Virus record (IMG/VR): IMGVR_UViG_3300029828_000006
Coordinates: 27,904 to 91,903 of that record
Source of the DNA: a virus
Lineage: Duplodnaviria; Heunggongvirae; Uroviricota; Caudoviricetes
Strand: one strand, 5' to 3'
Length of the DNA stretch: 64,000 nt
This document shows positions 1,418-55,796 of this stretch, piece after piece; position 1 is the stretch's first letter, and each line of letters begins with the position of its first letter. A program made the position numbers and the translations under genes. The notes under the pieces were generated by a model. It was not told the origin of the DNA. It ran no database searches and worked only from the letters and a program-made list of their open reading frames with translations.

Positions 1418-1429
1418 TTTTCTAACACA
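1418..1429. promoter_or_regulatory. operator-like motif TTTTCTAACACA (putative C1-type repressor site) upstream of immI-like leader
   Basis: One of at least 7 copies of the same asymmetric motif found in intergenic regions upstream of operons; flanked by partial inverted copy TTAGAAA at 1400-1406. Confidence 0.4.
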
Positions 1430-1481
1430 GATTATCGAGCGAGCATTTTCCGATCATTGGGATGTTTTGTAGACACACAGG

Positions 1482-11241: not shown

Positions 11242-12873
11242 CTCGGTACCAGCGGTGAAAAGATCCCCCTGTTGAGTACGGCTAACACATGGAGTGCGCG
11301 CCAGACTTTCAACGGCGGGATCACCGGGGCGCTGACAGGGAACGCCGACACCGCGACGAAATTAAAAACAGCCATAAACATTAATGGCGTCAGATTCGAT
11401 GGTTCGGCTGACATTAATATCAATACTCTGGTATCGCGTGGTCGCGTAACGGCTCTGGGGGCGAATGCACAGGGGACATCCGGGATTCAGCTGTATGAGG
11501 CATACAACAATGGCTACCCTTCCCCCTATGGCAATGTGCTTCACCTTAAAGGTGCCACCGCTGCTGGCGAAGGTGAGTTATTCATTGGCTGGAGTGGCAC
11601 GAGTGGTGACCATGCGCCCGTACATATCCGTTCGCGGCGGGATACTGATTCTGCTAACTGGTCTGAATGGGCGCAGGTCTATACGTCAAAAGATTCCGTT
11701 CCCGGCGTTAATGCCAAAGGGAATCAGGACACCTCTGGTAATGCGGCTACAGCGACCAAGTTGCAGACAGCATGTACTATCAACGGTGTCTCGTTTGATG
11801 GTTCTAAAAATATTGAGCTAACGGCGGAAGATTTAAATCTACAGGAAACGGTAAACAAGGCTGATAACGCGGTTCAAAAGACAGGCGATACCTTGTCCGG
11901 TGGACTTACTTTTGAAAACGACTCAATCCTTGCCTGGATTCGGAATACTGACTGGGCGAAGATTGGTTTTAAAAATGATGCCGACAGCGATACTGATTCA
12001 TACATGTGGTTTGAAACAGGCGACAACGGCAATGAATATTTCAAATGGAGAAGTCGCCAGAGCACCACAACAAAAGACCTGATGAATCTTAAATGGGATG
12101 CTTTGTCTGTCCTTGTTAAAGCCCTTTTCAGCAGTGAAGTAAAAATATCGACAGTCAATGCACTAAGGATATTTAATTCATCTTTTGGTGCTATTTTTCG
12201 TCGTTCTGAAGAATGCCTGCATATCATCCCTACACGAGAGAATGAGGGGGAAAATGGTGATATAGGGCCACTACGTCCCTTTACACTTAATCTCAGAACT
12301 GGCCGTATAACTATGGGGCATGGTCTGGATGTTACAGGAGATATAACAACTAACGCCTGGGTGTATGCAAACAGGTTTGCTATTAACAGCAGTAATGGTA
12401 TGTGGATTCAGATGCGCGATAACAACGCTATCTTTGGGAAAAATATAGTTAACACTGATAGCGCCCAGGCATTGCTACGTCAGGACCATGCTGATCGCAA
12501 ATTTATGATTGGTGGTCTGGGGAATAAGCAATTTGGCATCTACATGATTAATAATTCAAGGACAGCCAATGGTACCGATGGTCAGGCGTACATGGATAAT
12601 AACGGGAACTGGCTTTGCGGCTCGCAAGTTATTCCCGGCAACTATGGCAATTTTGACTCCAGATATGTGAAAGATGTTCGACTTGGTTCACAGCAATATT
12701 ATGGAGTGAACAACTGGCAAACATGGAATTTCCAGTGCCCTTCAGGTCATGTATTGTCTGGTATTAATGTTCAGGATACAGGTTCCAACTCTGCCGATAA
12801 TATAGCGGGCGTTTATTACAGGCCCGTTCAAAAGTTTATAAATGGCACCTGGTATAATGTAGCGAGCGTTTAA
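11230..12873 (+). CDS. promoterless alternative tail-fibre C-terminal cassette (Sv')
   Basis: Reading frame open from the crossover site; N-terminal ~60 aa identical to residues ~485-545 of the expressed fibre; would fuse to constant part after inversion. Confidence 0.75.
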
Positions 12874-33549: not shown

Positions 33550-33563
33550 TTTTCTAACACAAA
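33550..33563. promoter_or_regulatory. operator-like motif TTTTCTAACACAAA 12 nt upstream of ATG 33575
   Basis: Same motif family as the other operator-like sites. Confidence 0.45.
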
Positions 33564-39267: not shown

Positions 39268-40929
39268 ATGAGTGAGGCAGAAGCCCGCCCGACTAACTTT
39301 ATTCGTCAGATCATCGATGAAGATCTGGCCAGTGGTAAGCACACCACAGTACATACCCGTTTCCCGCCGGAACCGAATGGCTATCTGCATATTGGTCATG
39401 CGAAATCTATCTGCCTGAACTTCGGGATCGCCCAGGACTATAAAGGCCAGTGCAACCTGCGTTTCGACGACACTAACCCGGTAAAAGAAGATATCGAGTA
39501 TGTTGAGTCGATCAAAAACGACGTTGAGTGGTTAGGTTTTCACTGGTCTGGTAACGTCCGTTACTCCTCCGATTATTTTGATCAGCTCCACGCCTATGCG
39601 ATCGAACTGATAAATAAAGGCCTGGCGTATGTTGATGAACTGACACCGGAACAGATCCGCGAATACCGCGGCACCCTGACGCAGCCGGGTAAAAACAGCC
39701 CGTACCGCGACCGCAGCGTTGAAGAGAACCTGGCGCTGTTCGAAAAAATGCGTACCGGTGGTTTTGAAGAAGGTAAAGCCTGCCTGCGTGCGAAAATCGA
39801 CATGGCGTCGCCATTTATCGTAATGCGCGATCCGGTGCTGTACCGCATTAAATTTGCTGAACACCACCAGACTGGCAACAAGTGGTGCATCTACCCGATG
39901 TACGACTTCACCCATTGCATCAGCGATGCGCTGGAAGGTATTACGCACTCTCTGTGTACGCTTGAGTTCCAGGACAACCGCCGCCTGTACGACTGGGTGC
40001 TGGACAACATCACCATTCCTGTTCACCCGCGCCAGTACGAATTCTCGCGCCTGAATCTGGAATACACCGTGATGTCCAAGCGTAAGCTGAACCTGCTGGT
40101 GACCGACAAGCACGTTGAAGGCTGGGATGACCCGCGTATGCCGACCATTTCCGGTCTGCGTCGTCGTGGTTACACTGCGGCTTCTATTCGTGAGTTCTGC
40201 AAACGCATCGGCGTGACCAAGCAGGACAACACCATTGAAATGGCGTCGCTGGAATCCTGCATCCGTGAAGATCTCAACGAAAATGCCCCGCGCGCAATGG
40301 CGGTTATCGATCCGGTGAAACTGGTTATCGAAAACTACCAGGGCGAAGGCGAAATGGTCACCATGCCGAACCATCCGAACAAACCGGAAATGGGTAGCCG
40401 TCAGGTGCCGTTTAGCGGTGAGATTTGGATCGACCGCGCCGATTTCCGCGAAGAAGCTAACAAGCAGTACAAACGTCTGGTGCTGGGTAAAGAAGTGCGT
40501 CTGCGTAATGCTTACGTCATTAAGGCTGAACGCGTGGAGAAAGATGCCGAAGGCAATATCACCACCATCTTCTGTACTTATGACGCCGACACCTTAAGCA
40601 AAGATCCGGCAGATGGTCGTAAAGTGAAAGGCGTTATTCACTGGGTGAGCGCGGCACATGCGCTGCCGGTTGAAATCCGCCTGTACGATCGTCTGTTCAG
40701 CGTGCCGAACCCAGGTGCTGCGGATGATTTCCTGTCGGTGATTAACCCGGAATCGCTGGTGATCAAACAGGGTTTTGCTGAACCGTCGCTGAAAGAAGCG
40801 GTAGCGGGTAAAGCATTCCAGTTTGAGCGTGAAGGTTATTTCTGCCTCGACAGCCGCCATTCTACGGCGGAAAAACCGGTATTTAACCGCACCGTTGGGC
40901 TGCGTGATACCTGGGCGAAGTTAGGTTAA
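39268..40929 (+). CDS. glnS: glutaminyl-tRNA synthetase
   Basis: 553 aa with class I HIGH ([13 protein letters not shown]) and VMSKR (KMSKS-type) motifs; matches E. coli GlnRS recalled from memory almost throughout. Confidence 0.95.
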
Positions 40930-40953
40930 TAGGTATTTCGCCACATAAAAAAG

Positions 40954-40979
40954 AAAACGCCGCTACTGCGGCGTTTTTT
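40954..40979. terminator. bidirectional terminator between glnS and Dam-methylase gene
   Basis: aaaacgccgctactgcggcgtttttt. Confidence 0.65.
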
Positions 40980-41883
40980 ACTTCATTATTGCAATTATAT
41001 CGTTAGCAACTACACGTTTTGACGCCTTGCAGGACACCGACCGTCTGGCTGCCATATGATGTACTTTAAACCCGTTTCCTTCATATAGTTCACGGATGTT
41101 TGGCGCACCACTATTTGTTATCACTACCTTAGCGCCGCGCTGGTGGGCTTCCACCAATAGAGATACCAGCCGTTTCTGTTCGTCGAAACGGAAGCTATTT
41201 CCTGAATAACTGGTAAACCCTTCTGTATCCGGCAGCGGTTCATACGGCGGATCGCAAAAAATCACATCGCCTTCACCAGCCGCCTCGATGACGCCAGCAA
41301 AGTCACCTGATACAAAGGACGTGTTTTTGAGGACGTCATCAGCCAAAAATGCCTCCATCTCTGCATGTGGGAAGTAGGGCGCTTTGTATTTGCCATACCC
41401 CACGTTGAACTCGCCATTTTGGTTGTACCGCGTTACGCCATTAAAACAGTGCCGATTAAGGTACAAAAAGGCGGCAGCATGATGTAGCTGGTCATACTTT
41501 CCTCTGTTAAATGCCTCACGCACTTCGAGGTAAGCGTCAGCGTTGTTGTAATTTTGGAAAAAACTATATGACAGCGTGACGAGCGAATGTCCTTCTCGCT
41601 GCAATGTCTGATAGAAGTTAATCAGGTCACCGTTAATATCATTAAGCAGGTTGTGGCAAAATCCTGCATTCGTAAATACGGAACCGCCACCAACGAATGG
41701 TTCTATTAACCGCTTACCGTGTGGTAGATGCTCAAGCACTGTAGGCAATTCTGAGAATTTACCACCTACCCATTTGAATATCGGACGCTCATATTCATCC
41801 GGAGTCCGAATGGTGCGCATATAGCTAATTTCAGCCATCGTATCCTGTTTTTCTATGGCTATGCTTGCTATAGATTTACTCAT
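40978..41883 (-). CDS. Dam-family DNA adenine (N6) methyltransferase
   Basis: FKWVGGK...EPFVGGGSVF and DPPY motifs; ATG 41883 overlaps stop of upstream gene (ATGAGTAA). Confidence 0.85.
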   Translation of the reverse strand: MSKSIASIAIEKQDTMAEISYMRTIRTPDEYERPIFKWVGGKFSELPTVLEHLPHGKRLIEPFVGGGSVFTNAGFCHNLLNDINGDLINFYQTLQREGHSLVTLSYSFFQNYNNADAYLEVREAFNRGKYDQLHHAAAFLYLNRHCFNGVTRYNQNGEFNVGYGKYKAPYFPHAEMEAFLADDVLKNTSFVSGDFAGVIEAAGEGDVIFCDPPYEPLPDTEGFTSYSGNSFRFDEQKRLVSLLVEAHQRGAKVVITNSGAPNIRELYEGNGFKVHHMAARRSVSCKASKRVVANDIIAIMK

Positions 41884-42526
41884 AGAGCACCCCCTTATTC
41901 GCTTCGAAAACTGCCTTTGCGAATCCATGTGGAGTAGCACTTCGAAAATTAGCCCTGTCAGGCCCTGGTGGCGCGGCATGGATTCTGTTATCTGGCTTGC
42001 CTAATGATTCGTCCATTAGGGCATCAGGCATGACAAAGCCCTGGCCGCTCCAGAGGCATGTTTTTTTGGTGTAGTTATCTTCCTGACAATATGCAGTGAA
42101 GAAGTAAGGGTGAAAGATGTGATCTGGCTTACGCCAGAATGTCGATATTTTGCTGACCGGATTTTCAATCATGTACGGACAACCGATCATCTTTGCAATG
42201 TCATAACACTGCCAGACAACCTGCATTGCTTTGAACTGGAAAAACGGATCTTTGTCAGCCTTATGCGCAAACCAGCGCGCACCGGAAACAGCAAGGTCCG
42301 TGCACGGCGGAAAACCAGCTAAAAACACAATACGTTGTAAATTATTTCGGAGAAAAGCATAAACTTCATCACTATCGATAATCGCACTGATACGTGTCAG
42401 AACTGCGCCTGATTGCATCAGCTCATCTCTGGTCTCTGCGTGTTGTGGATCGACGATAACAGCATCTATACCATGCTCCAGCCAGGGGGCGACCATTTTC
42501 CCCGTGAAATCACAAAGACTCACCAT
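41876..42526 (-). CDS. divergent C5-cytosine methyltransferase-like protein
   Basis: GFPPC..AVSGAR (PCQ-type motif IV) and ENP (ENV-type motif VI); likely start MVSLCDF at 42526, 14 nt after rdgC stop. Confidence 0.5.
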   Translation of the reverse strand: MVSLCDFTGKMVAPWLEHGIDAVIVDPQHAETRDELMQSGAVLTRISAIIDSDEVYAFLRNNLQRIVFLAGFPPCTDLAVSGARWFAHKADKDPFFQFKAMQVVWQCYDIAKMIGCPYMIENPVSKISTFWRKPDHIFHPYFFTAYCQEDNYTKKTCLWSGQGFVMPDALMDESLGKPDNRIHAAPPGPDRANFRSATPHGFAKAVFEANKGVLYE

Positions 42527-42539
42527 CAGAGGTCTATTG

Positions 42540-43445
42540 TTAACGTTCTGCTTCACCACCAACGGCCTCCACCAGCGAAGTGAACATCGCGGATAATTCA
42601 GCAGTAAACAGGATAAAGTCAGCGTCAAATCGTTGCGCAACATCCTCTCGATCAATATCGTCGTTCTGGTCGTACAATTCGTCGCTGAACGACAAAGCCT
42701 TGATACTCATATCGTCATTCAGTCTGAAAAATGCACGGTCTTGCCAGTTAACCGCAACTGTGGTTGCAACCTTACCAGCTTCTATATGACTCATGATCTC
42801 GTCGGATAGCAGGTCCACTTTTTTGCAGCGGACCGCGCCGCCATCATCAAGCAATGCTTTTAAGGTCGCTTCCTCACCGGCACGGAAACCGTTCGGGAAG
42901 CCATTTTTAATCCAGCCAGTGATGGTCAGTTCTAATGGGTCTTTCGGAGAGAAGGGGACAACGGGCAAGCTGCCAAGCGATTTCCGTAACAAAGCCAGCT
43001 GATCCTCTGCTTTTTTAGCACTGCTGGCCTCGACAAAAACCAGATGATTGCTTCGGTCTATCAGGATTTTAGCGACTGATTTTCTCGTGAAAGCACGAGG
43101 AAGCAGAGAGTGAAGCACTTCATCCTTCAGCGAATCTTTTTCAGTCTTCTTCAGCTTTCTGTCTTGCTCTTCTTCAAGTGTCAGGATTTTTTTCTGTAAC
43201 TCTTCTTTGAGCACTTGAGAGGGTAGGATTTTTTCCTCTCGTTTATGCTGTATCAGAAGAAAACCCTGGTATTCATGGGTGAGGTTGTCACCAAGAACGG
43301 AGGTCCAACCAGCTTTAGCCATATCCTGAGAACCGCATGGGGTAAACACAAACTTGCTAAGGGCTGCATTTACTTCTGCAGTATCCCAGCTAACTTCGCG
43401 TGAAAGACGATAGATGAAGATATTTTTGAAAGCGACTGATCTCAT
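42540..43445 (-). CDS. rdgC: RdgC-like recombination-associated protein
   Basis: 301 aa; [12 protein letters not shown]...[11 protein letters not shown]...[21 protein letters not shown]...RFDADFIL resembles E. coli RdgC (from memory). Confidence 0.75.
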
Positions 43446-43454
43446 GTCTCACCA

Positions 43455-43492
43455 TTTGTGTTAGAAAATACATATTAATTATCTAACACAAA
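43455..43492. promoter_or_regulatory. pair of inverted operator-like motifs upstream of rdgC
   Basis: TTTGTGTTAGAAAA (43455-43468) and TTATCTAACACAAA (43479-43492); first copy lies 10 nt from rdgC ATG. Confidence 0.5.
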
Positions 43493-43504
43493 TGGGTGCA
43501 TTTT

Positions 43505-44158
43505 CTATCCTTTCTTGAAATCGAAGTTGCCAGCAGTGGCCTGAAAGGTTCCTCCTGCCTTGAAAGCTATGTCTCCGTTAGCGGTGACAGCTATATTTTC
43601 CCCATTAACATTGATGTTGTTGGCTGATTTGACGTTAACACTCCCTCCTGCATTCACGATTACATCAGCCGGACCAATGATATATATCTGCCCGGACTCA
43701 TTCATGCCAATCCTTGAGCCTGCTGCCGTATTGGCAATTTCATAGCCGCCACCAGCAGTTCGTACTTCAAGAATATTGTTGCGGTGAATAACGAAGTCTT
43801 TCGTTGCTGAGATTTGGGGGCGGGGAGGTGCTCCATCTACTTCCGGCGGCGTCCAGCCGTTGCCTTTGCCAGATGCTTCTGGTGCAACGTTTGGAATTCC
43901 TCCCGGTGCATCCTGAGCGGCACCAACTATCATTGGGCGTCTGGTGTCTATTCGACCGTTAACATCTAAATAAGGAAACTCTACCCAGACCAGGTCACCT
44001 TTGACTGTAGGTACAAAAGCGTTCCCGATGGGTAACTGGTATTCCGCCCAGGGTAGATCGTCATCAGGAACGCCATTCCAGTCAGGTAAAACACGGACTT
44101 GAGCACGCATAAGCCCTGCCGGGTGCACAGTTCCAACAATTTGCGCTCTACGCTTCAT
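43505..44158 (-). CDS. baseplate spike protein (gpV/VgrG-like OB fold plus beta-helix)
   Basis: 217 aa; RAQVRVLPDWNGV...VPTVKGDLVWVEF...RPMIVGA then repetitive VNxGGxVNV beta-helical tail. Confidence 0.55.
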   Translation of the reverse strand: MKRRAQIVGTVHPAGLMRAQVRVLPDWNGVPDDDLPWAEYQLPIGNAFVPTVKGDLVWVEFPYLDVNGRIDTRRPMIVGAAQDAPGGIPNVAPEASGKGNGWTPPEVDGAPPRPQISATKDFVIHRNNILEVRTAGGGYEIANTAAGSRIGMNESGQIYIIGPADVIVNAGGSVNVKSANNINVNGENIAVTANGDIAFKAGGTFQATAGNFDFKKG

Positions 44159-55781: not shown

Positions 55782-55796
55782 TTTTCTAACACAAAA
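55782..55796. promoter_or_regulatory. operator-like motif TTTTCTAACACAAAA in divergent ref / early-operon promoter region
   Basis: Motif family; partial inverted copy GTTAGATA at 55763-55770. Confidence 0.45.

Follow-up and report, generated by a model that had tools for sequence, protein, structure and literature searches.

A described counterpart of the locus analyzed here is the immunity-controlled uhr-hrdC-dmt operon of phage P1, a module that was reportedly described in 2004. Another close relative is phage D6, whose record is said to have been in GenBank since 2017 and whose genome was reportedly published by Gilcrease and Casjens in 2018. The RdgC protein of E. coli is a dimer in the shape of a ring; it binds double-strand DNA and restrains RecA. 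The P1 repressor C1 is also reported to have operators at c1, lpa, and c4/icd/ant (Lobocka et al. 2004). Annotation of P1 confirms the operator Odmt and also Oref, the latter located in a promoter spacer. The Dmt protein of P1 methylates GATC (P1 record; PMC12707154). A further system, known from a preprint, is the Dcm of phage K42, which forms 5-methylcytosine (5mC) as detected by LC-MS, whereas a C82A/E128A/K175A/K176A mutant does not. K42 Dcm also triggers the retron Ec86. The CCWGG target given in the preprint is borrowed from E. coli Dcm and is provisional for this short Dcm family.

The stretch of DNA examined here, called the window, is 64,000 nucleotides long and is part of a D6-like phage-plasmid of about 93 kb. 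The region was found on 101 E. coli plasmids and on no chromosomes. Within it, three minus-strand genes overlap in series with a 44-bp palindrome in front (Table 1), and the operon is very probably the D6-type counterpart of uhr-hrdC-dmt. Phage D6 (GenBank MF356679) matches the trio gene for gene, in order and in context, with glnS again downstream, and the proteins are 90% to 93.5% identical (90% for the RdgC homolog and 93.5% for the middle protein). The trio is already annotated there as orf65 (RdgC family), orf64 (putative DNA-cytosine methylase), and orf63 (DNA-adenine methylase). The differences from D6 are allelic only, although its GenBank record annotates no operator or hairpin at the operon. 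The RdgC-Dcm-Dam trio is also present in a 63%-identical lineage. The gene identities, coordinates, translational linkage, and operator-like inverted motifs of the original prediction are all present, and its general picture of an early repressor-controlled DNA-modification module is right, as it matches the Odmt/Op68 and Pdmt that precede uhr-hrdC-dmt. Its view that a phage-borne RdgC paired with methylases is unusual has to be given up, since this is the classical hrdC-dmt arrangement of P1, it is annotated in D6, and RdgC homologs occur in 402 phage records. Because the operon is the D6 version of a long-known repressor-controlled operon of P1, the gene set is ordinary and carries little weight as a discovery. 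The module is already known; the details of the operator and the hairpin are modestly new.

Table 1. Positions of the genes and of the predicted regulatory features in the window.
Feature	Position	Strand	Description or basis
hrdC, RdgC-family DNA-binding recombination-associated protein	42540..43445	-	301 aa; PF04381, NF001462
Short phage Dcm-type C5-cytosine methyltransferase	41876..42556	-	226 aa from GTG 42556, or 216 aa from ATG 42526
Dam-family N6-adenine DNA methyltransferase	40978..41883	-	301 aa; PF02086, TIGR00571
44-bp palindrome, two inverted candidate D6-type operator 12-mers TT(T/A)TCTAACACA	43452..43495	.	inverted repeat 17/18
Predicted sigma-70 promoter, TAGAAA-18 nt-GATAAT	43478..43507	-	consensus scan, 9/12 matches
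Predicted bidirectional intrinsic terminator, common to the dam operon and convergent glnS	40952..40979	.	both-strand terminator scan
Candidate monovalent operator copy, between repL and the region upstream of icd/ant	1418..1431	+	D6 equivalent 21267
Candidate monovalent operator copy, upstream of orf52-like gene, divergent from the major capsid gene	33550..33563	+	D6 54208; pEC361_3 23419
Candidate monovalent operator copy, between ref and the divergent early operon	55782..55795	+	D6 equivalent 76637; P1 Oref at the corresponding locus

Like its P1 counterpart, the operon has an RdgC homolog that is followed directly by C5-type and Dam-type functions, neighboring genes overlap, and an operator appears to lie at the promoter, where it would provide control by the prophage repressor. 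The differences are in the parts. P1 has an extra upstream gene, uhr, and a canonical PF00145 C5 domain that is fused upstream of Dam in a single 754-aa Dmt protein. Here, in its place, there is a separate, non-orthologous short Dcm gene with no detectable sequence similarity to the C5 part of Dmt. The P1 operator is monovalent and reads ATTGCTCTAATAAATAT, whereas the putative operator here is bivalent and of a different sequence. Another difference is that the late tail genes 7-24-6-5 immediately precede the operon here. Overlaps of 17 nt and 8 nt couple the translation of the three genes.

The first gene, hrdC, corresponds to orf65 of D6, and its product is 55% identical to HrdC of P1. It matches PF04381 over nearly all of the profile (E 6e-102, 341 bits, residues 6-298 to profile positions 3-298 of 298) and the NCBIfam equivalog model NF001462 with 388.5 bits, above the cut-off of 330 bits. 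It resembles the RdgC of E. coli in matching the family models at full length and differs in being borne on a phage-plasmid and probably under immunity control. HrdC may modulate recombination on phage DNA.

The last gene encodes a Dam-family protein with strong matches to PF02086 (E 4e-56, 190.9 bits, cut-off 22) and TIGR00571 (251.6 bits, cut-off 114.85). Its translation holds FCDPPYEP, with the catalytic DPPY, as well as EPFVGGGSV, with the SAM-binding motif FxGxG. It is 69% identical to residues 478-753 of P1 Dmt, the Dam half, from which GATC is the probable target here as well. In P1, methylation of GATC by the Dmt ortholog licenses cleavage of the pac packaging site and can protect against restriction. 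GATC and CCWGG are mildly under-represented within the window, which is uninformative.

The original prediction began the middle gene at ATG 42526, but GTG 42556 is the likelier start: it has a GGAGG box 6 nt upstream, gives a protein of the same length (226 aa) as D6 orf64 and P0001, and produces the 17-nt overlap with the rdgC stop. When this C5-like protein is scored against PF00145, the result is mixed. There is no match to the profile even at E <= 1, and none of the 120 listed homologs carries PF00145 either. The Pro-Cys of motif IV and the Glu of motif VI are present, the latter in an ENP variant in which the Val of the usual Glu-Asn-Val is replaced by Pro. None of 33 homologs departs from FPPC or ENP, where P1 Dmt reads TPCQ and ENV. 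The same homologs show no change in the catalytic Cys and Glu or in the residues that surround SAM-binding motif I. At motif VIII, YTKKTCLW stands in the place of QxRxR. No large target-recognition domain is found, as only about 35 strongly conserved residues precede RSATP in a protein of 216-226 aa in total. Searches with Pfam, NCBIfam, and PADLOC methyltransferase models and a PDB sequence search gave no meaningful match to the protein, and a comparison with the C5 half of P1 Dmt gave no similarity by BLASTP and a probability of 0.3% by hhalign. The protein does have the fold of a C5-methyltransferase catalytic domain. Since the sequence searches gave no meaningful match, the C5 assignment is based on this fold together with a family link.

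The family is that of the short phage Dcm proteins (phrog_757, E 4e-77), which comprises 2610 clusters at 50% identity, nearly all of 200-260 aa; over 1,500 phage genomes have a member, and Pfam has no model for it. A gene labeled hypothetical can thus be placed in a very large family. The Dcm of the K42/KarlJaspers type (damhaus gp42) belongs to phrog_757 too and is 38% identical to the middle protein over its full length. Residues C75, E121, K154, and K155 (with C75 in the numbering of the 216-aa form) align to C82, E128, K175, and K176 of damhaus gp42, whose numbering is also that of K42 Dcm, so that the mutated Cys, Glu, and Lys-Lys are the aligned residues here; the fold resembles DNMT3. 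The two differ in a 14-residue insert before motif VIII in the K42 type, which is absent here. The Dcm genes of the Drexlerviridae differ as well in being early genes that stand alone, with neither Dam nor RdgC next to them. In another relative, P0226, an intein sits exactly at the catalytic Cys. Genuine in-frame fusions of Dcm to Dam do exist elsewhere, as in P0121. The 226-aa protein is a short orphan C5-cytosine methyltransferase without a full target-recognition domain, and it would be expected to form 5mC as its homolog does. The suggestion that a PPC variant could indicate non-canonical chemistry falls away, since Pro-Cys is the canonical motif IV and a relative with the same Cys, Glu, and Lys-Lys makes ordinary 5mC. 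From the family link, cytosine methylation by D6-like plasmids is to be expected on induction, and such plasmids could set off retrons of the Ec86 type.

It is very unlikely that the middle protein is something other than a DNA 5mC methyltransferase, such as an inactive or regulatory partner of Dam, an RNA or tRNA enzyme (DNMT2-like), or a transferase of another group (carboxymethyl from Cx-SAM, CmoX-like). The TKKT at motif VIII, the few residues where a target-recognition domain would be, and the lack of a match to PF00145, NCBIfam, or PADLOC methyltransferase models all fit such a protein, as does the provisional specificity of the family, and glnS and tRNA genes on the same element could be taken to fit an RNA or tRNA substrate. 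These points are outweighed by a 38%-identical relative that makes 5mC in DNA in vivo in dependence on the aligned Cys, Glu, and Lys-Lys, and by the invariance of the catalytic residues and of the surroundings of motif I in the family. The gene also sits in the slot of the canonical DNA C5 domain of P1 Dmt, natural fusions of short Dcm to Dam exist, and the annotation of D6 has no cmoA-like gene, which speaks against a CmoX-like transfer. The original prediction had also raised a frameshift that would make the two methylase ORFs one fused gene. The chance that a single gene like that of P1 Dmt was split here, by a frameshift or by an error in sequencing, is negligible. P1 Dmt is indeed a C5-Dam fusion, P0121 is a 563-aa fusion of a short Dcm and Dam, and PGAP labeled the Dam gene partial in a 99.9%-identical plasmid. 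However, diverged plasmids keep the arrangement of two ORFs that overlap by 8 nt: the overlap of the dam ATG and the dcm stop, which reads ATGAGTAA (41883-41876), is kept in D6, in pEC361_3 (72% DNA identity), and in the P0009 lineage. Both methylase proteins span their profiles end to end, the dam ATG is preceded by a G-rich Shine-Dalgarno stretch of its own, and the linker of about 45 residues that joins the domains of P0121 is absent here.

The palindrome in front of hrdC has arms at 43452-43469 and 43478-43495 that are complementary at 17 of 18 positions and separated by a spacer of 8 nt. The motif pair consists of TTTTCTAACACA twice, in opposite orientations, and D6-like plasmids as diverged as 72% identity retain the palindrome. 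The core 12-mer occurs at 7 sites in the window against 0.58 expected (12-fold over shuffles) and is therefore well beyond chance. It surfaced only when a shorter exact core was used, as the first search, with a 14-mer and 3 mismatches, was not above chance. In D6, TTTTCTAACACA(AA) precedes c1, lpa, and hrdC (at hrdC as the inverted pair) and is also found between repL and icd/ant and between ref and orf88. The 12-mer sites are retained in the diverged plasmid pEC361_3, in which the site at ref is bivalent as well, again with the 22-nt geometry. Because the 12-mer recurs at positions equivalent to those of the P1 C1 operators (c1, lpa, icd/ant, and ref), the palindrome is most likely a bivalent operator of the C1 type. 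The P1 C1 consensus ATTGCTCTAATAAATTT has no match in the window with up to 3 mismatches, which means that D6 uses a different operator sequence and that the D6 motif is assigned to C1 solely by genome position. In a lysogen, the C1 repressor would keep the operon off, and transcription would follow infection or induction. The candidate D6-type operator and the map of its sites offer a handle on the immunity regulon of phage-plasmids that are widespread in E. coli and Salmonella. A reading of the motif as a late promoter was rejected, as the P1 late-promoter -22 box AAGTGACTT is dissimilar and the sites are not upstream of structural operons.

The -10 hexamer of the predicted promoter, GATAAT, is located within the promoter-proximal arm of the putative operator and is invariant in six D6-like plasmids. 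It is created by an asymmetry of the two arms, TTATC against TTTTC, which is itself invariant. The match to the sigma-70 consensus is weak, and a scan gave 4 promoter-like sites against 4.6 in shuffles, with no excess. The arrangement suggests a weak sigma-70 promoter overlapped by two inverted copies of a D6-type C1 operator.

The palindrome could also act as RNA. Its folding energy is -22.7 kcal/mol (z = -5.2 against shuffles), and in a sense-strand read-through transcript it would form a hairpin of about 20 bp that ends 6 nt before the hrdC AUG. Variants of the palindrome came from a search of viral contigs; a search of genome contigs found none. The invariance of the hairpin core is partly due to the search pattern, so the flanks alone are informative. 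Five pairs in the flanks covary, with changes on both sides, and none of 500 shuffles reaches the observed value. The G-U wobbles in the flanks are standard pairs on the sense strand only. Rfam has no known RNA family at the palindrome. With the predicted -10 placed within the first arm, only a transcript from upstream could form the full hairpin. The late tail operon lies directly upstream, and transcription from it would fold the palindrome into the sense-strand hairpin, whose structure is deduced from the covariation. The hairpin probably insulates, processes, or translationally damps read-through transcripts.

These observations could be pressed further, into a reading in which the palindrome is purely an RNA element where the late tail operon ends (for example, a 3' stabilizer, an RNase III site, or a terminator that lacks a U-tract) with no operator, and the three genes are the distal part of a late operon. 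The strong fold, the covariation that reaches beyond the operator core, the wobble pairs that fit the sense strand only, the need for a transcript from upstream, and the weakness of the predicted promoter would all agree with it. Such an element is nonetheless unlikely, since c1, lpa, icd/ant, and ref-type loci carry the identical 12-mer as a lone copy, which lacks the palindrome and cannot form a hairpin, and the second bivalent site in pEC361_3 has the same geometry without symmetry of the flanks. The T-T mismatch that creates GATAAT is invariant, although one substitution would be enough to complete the stem. The stem is not followed by a T-run, no intrinsic terminator was called at the palindrome, and the P1 homolog is a documented C1-controlled operon. 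Alongside the C1-type operator, a broader proposal is a tentative possibility and on balance doubtful. The palindrome would serve as DNA as a bivalent C1 operator over its own promoter and in read-through RNA as a hairpin that insulates, processes (for example, through RNase III), or damps hrdC-dcm-dam, while Dcm and Dam would form a physically coupled pair whose 5mC is visible to sensors of the retron Ec86 type. A repressor site and an RNA hairpin appear to be written into one palindrome, with two functions in one sequence. As for the coupled pair, the dcm and dam genes overlap here and are fused in relatives.

At the other end of the operon, the predicted terminator has a GC-rich stem of 10-12 bp followed by a T-run. 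Downstream of dam, glnS runs convergently, and tRNA genes are present on the same element.

The ORF listing and a reading of the minus strand of 40700-44000 confirmed the noted trio, three consecutive minus-strand genes with a 44-bp palindrome upstream of rdgC. The most likely start of the middle gene is GTG 42556, preceded at 6 nt by a GGAGG box; it yields a protein of 226 aa, the same length as D6 orf64 and an identical database protein (P0001). Counted from this GTG, the rdgC stop and the middle gene overlap by 17 nt, and the dam ATG overlaps the middle-ORF stop in ATGAGTAA (41883-41876), so all three genes are translationally linked. These overlaps are read from the sequence and the gene identities from homology. 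Both methylases are orphan, since their neighbors are tail genes and glnS, with no nuclease. The glnS gene carried by this phage-plasmid is missing from the diverged D6-like plasmid pEC361_3 and is therefore a variable cargo gene. In NZ_CP173482.1, a plasmid 99.9% identical, PGAP (NCBI) calls the Dam gene (12049-12867, equivalent to window 40978-41796) a partial pseudogene "missing N-terminus." Despite this label, the ORF is intact and spans the Dam profiles end to end, and the call is probably an annotation artefact from the overlapping start.

Features of the operon and copies of the repeated motif in the window
Feature	Position	Strand	Evidence or context
glnS (D6 orf62)	39268-40929	plus	full-length glutaminyl-tRNA synthetase, 553 aa
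Bidirectional terminator	40952-40979	both	between operon and convergent glnS
Dam-family methylase	40978-41883	minus	PF02086, E 4e-56; TIGR00571 above cut-off
Middle ORF	end 41876	minus	FPPC and ENP present
RdgC homolog (hrdC)	42540-43445	minus	PF04381, E 6e-102, full length; NCBIfam NF001462 above cut-off
Palindrome	arms 43452-43469 and 43478-43495		17/18 positions complementary, 8-nt gap
TTTTCTAACACA, exact or 1 mismatch	1418	plus	AT-rich intergenic, near repL and icd/ant
TTTTCTAACACA, exact or 1 mismatch	33550	plus	AT-rich intergenic, near orf52-like gene
TTTTCTAACACA, exact or 1 mismatch	52073	minus	inside an ORF
TTTTCTAACACA, exact or 1 mismatch	55782	plus	AT-rich intergenic, near ref/orf88
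TTTTCTAACACA, exact or 1 mismatch	60371	plus	AT-rich intergenic, near pdcB-like gene

The region is matched in 101 E. coli plasmids of ~90-95 kb, with no match in chromosomes. Identity to the phage D6 proteins is 90-93.5%. The D6 annotation gives orf65 as RdgC family and similar to P1 hrdC, orf64 as a putative DNA-cytosine methylase, and orf63 as a DNA-adenine methylase resembling the C-terminal half of P1 dmt, with orf62 (glnS) next after orf63. The module is already known, because the D6 record is public and shows its gene set and layout; what the analysis adds is modest, namely an operator consensus, a family for the middle gene, and covariation in the hairpin. The phage P1 homologs are organized as the uhr-hrdC-dmt operon, recorded with the C1 operator Odmt (formerly Op68) and the promoter Pdmt. 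In pairwise comparison, P1 HrdC is 55% identical to the hrdC product, and residues 478-753 of P1 Dmt are 69% identical to the Dam protein. Given this homology, an RdgC gene beside C5-type and Dam-type methylases under prophage-repressor control is the textbook P1 arrangement, and 402 phage records contain an RdgC homolog, so the pairing cannot be called unusual, as the original prediction had done. Unlike P1, the D6 type lacks uhr, lies directly behind a late operon, and has a different operator sequence that is bivalent. In P1 Dmt, the C5 part is a canonical PF00145 domain that makes up the N-terminal half of the fusion; the D6 type has an unfused, non-orthologous short Dcm in its place.

The middle protein matches phrog_757 ("DNA methyltransferase") at E 4e-77. 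Pfam, NCBIfam, PADLOC, and PDB gave no sequence match, and comparison with the C5 half of P1 Dmt detected no similarity. The phrog_757 family is very large, with tblastn matches in 1,588 phage records and >7,900 clusters at 90% identity (2,610 at 50%, almost all of 200-260 aa). In an alignment of 33 members, FPPCT, ENP, and RSATP are invariant, LCDxTG is nearly so, and VDPQH and YTKKTCLW are conserved. Foldseek comparison of the AlphaFold model (pLDDT 87.8) agrees with a C5-methyltransferase assignment; as modeled, the protein is a C5 catalytic domain with only ~35 residues in the usual place of the target-recognition domain. Pro-Cys is the canonical nucleophile motif of these enzymes, and P1 Dmt has TPCQ at this point, so the idea that PPC signals unusual chemistry is not supported. 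The suggestion that the two methylase ORFs are a single frameshifted gene was rejected, since D6, pEC361_3, and the P0009 lineage all keep their overlap.

Activity is known for a related enzyme. The 711-bp "dcm" gene of phage K42 (Drexlerviridae) triggers retron Ec86, and its product makes 5mC in msDNA, as seen by LC-MS, while a C82A/E128A/K175A/K176A mutant is inactive (10.1101/2023.08.16.553469). Phage damhaus gp42, also 711 bp, carries exactly these residues under the same numbering (C82, E128, K175, and K176). Its identity to the middle protein is 38%, and C75, E121, K154, and K155 of the middle protein align with them. In the same preprint, CCWGG specificity was assumed from E. coli Dcm, and the strain used, MG1655, is dcm+, with low 5mC still present in control msDNA (10.1101/2023.08.16.553469). 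As the target motif of the short phage Dcm family, CCWGG does not look rigorously established. In other phages the short Dcm gene stands alone, and in a 63%-identical lineage the RdgC-Dcm-Dam order is retained. One relative, P0226 (548 aa), carries a Hint/LAGLIDADG intein exactly at the catalytic Cys, GFPP-[CFTGDT...IVHN]-CTNLSVSG, so that the intein +1 residue is the methyltransferase nucleophile. Another, P0121 (563 aa), is a natural single-chain fusion of a short Dcm domain (2-254) and a Dam domain (303-546) over a linker of ~45 residues; the domain order is that of P1 Dmt, but with the non-canonical C5 module. The intein, the fusion, and the 63%-identical lineage are further indications that the enzyme is real and linked to Dam.

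No match to the P1 operator consensus occurs in the 64-kb window. The palindrome core TTTTCTAACACA occurs 7 times at no more than 1 mismatch, against 0.58 in shuffles, and the single copies together map out a candidate regulon of the D6-type C1 repressor. In the complete D6 genome, the inverted pair precedes hrdC; other sites lie directly in front of c1, ahead of lpa, orf52, and a simB-like gene, and in the intervals repL to icd/ant and ref to orf88. These positions match those of P1 C1 operators: Odmt and Oref are annotated as such in the P1 record, and those at c1, lpa, and c4/icd/ant are established (Lobocka et al. 2004). The promoter-proximal arm covers the spacer and -10 of a predicted promoter, TAGAAA-18-GATAAT, much as P1 Oref lies in the spacer of its own promoter, and pEC361_3 retains the operator sites. 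From the recurrence, the match to P1 operator positions, the promoter overlap, and this conservation, we infer that the inverted motifs are a putative bivalent D6-type C1 operator, which supports their description as operator-like. A second bivalent site was seen in pEC361_3 at 43088-43121, between ref and the next operon, with the 22-nt start-to-start distance found at hrdC and without flank symmetry; its equivalents in the window and D6 are monovalent.

In a lysogen, C1 would repress the operon. After induction, HrdC might modulate RecA-dependent events, the short Dcm would lay down 5mC, and Dam would methylate GATC; both marks could protect against restriction. In P1, GATC methylation licenses pac cleavage (PMC12707154).

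The palindrome may also act as RNA. D6-like plasmids and IMG/VR contigs supplied 13 distinct versions of it. Next to the operator core, the five flanking pairs occur in four sequence forms (CCATT/AATGG, CCAAT/ATTGG, GCAAAAC/GTTTTGC, and TTCAA/TTGGA), with complementarity kept in all. Both-sided changes fill 18 cells, a number reached by 0/500 shuffles, and shifted-register controls collapse. Flanks of other operators in the same genomes are unlike each other, so repressor specificity cannot explain the covariation. Cells that are not Watson-Crick pairs read G-U or U-G in the sense direction and would be C-A on the opposite strand; the loop is hypervariable, and no version repairs the T-T mismatch that gives rise to GATAAT. 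Folding gives -22.7 kcal/mol (z = -5.2). Covariation, wobbles, and fold together argue for a sense-strand hairpin, which can form only in transcripts that run in from the late tail genes 7-24-6-5 upstream. The terminator scan shows no U-tract for it, and Rfam has no matching family. The predicted hairpin stops 6 nt short of the hrdC AUG, with part of the Shine-Dalgarno sequence inside it, and might act as an insulator, as an RNase III processing site, or by damping translation.
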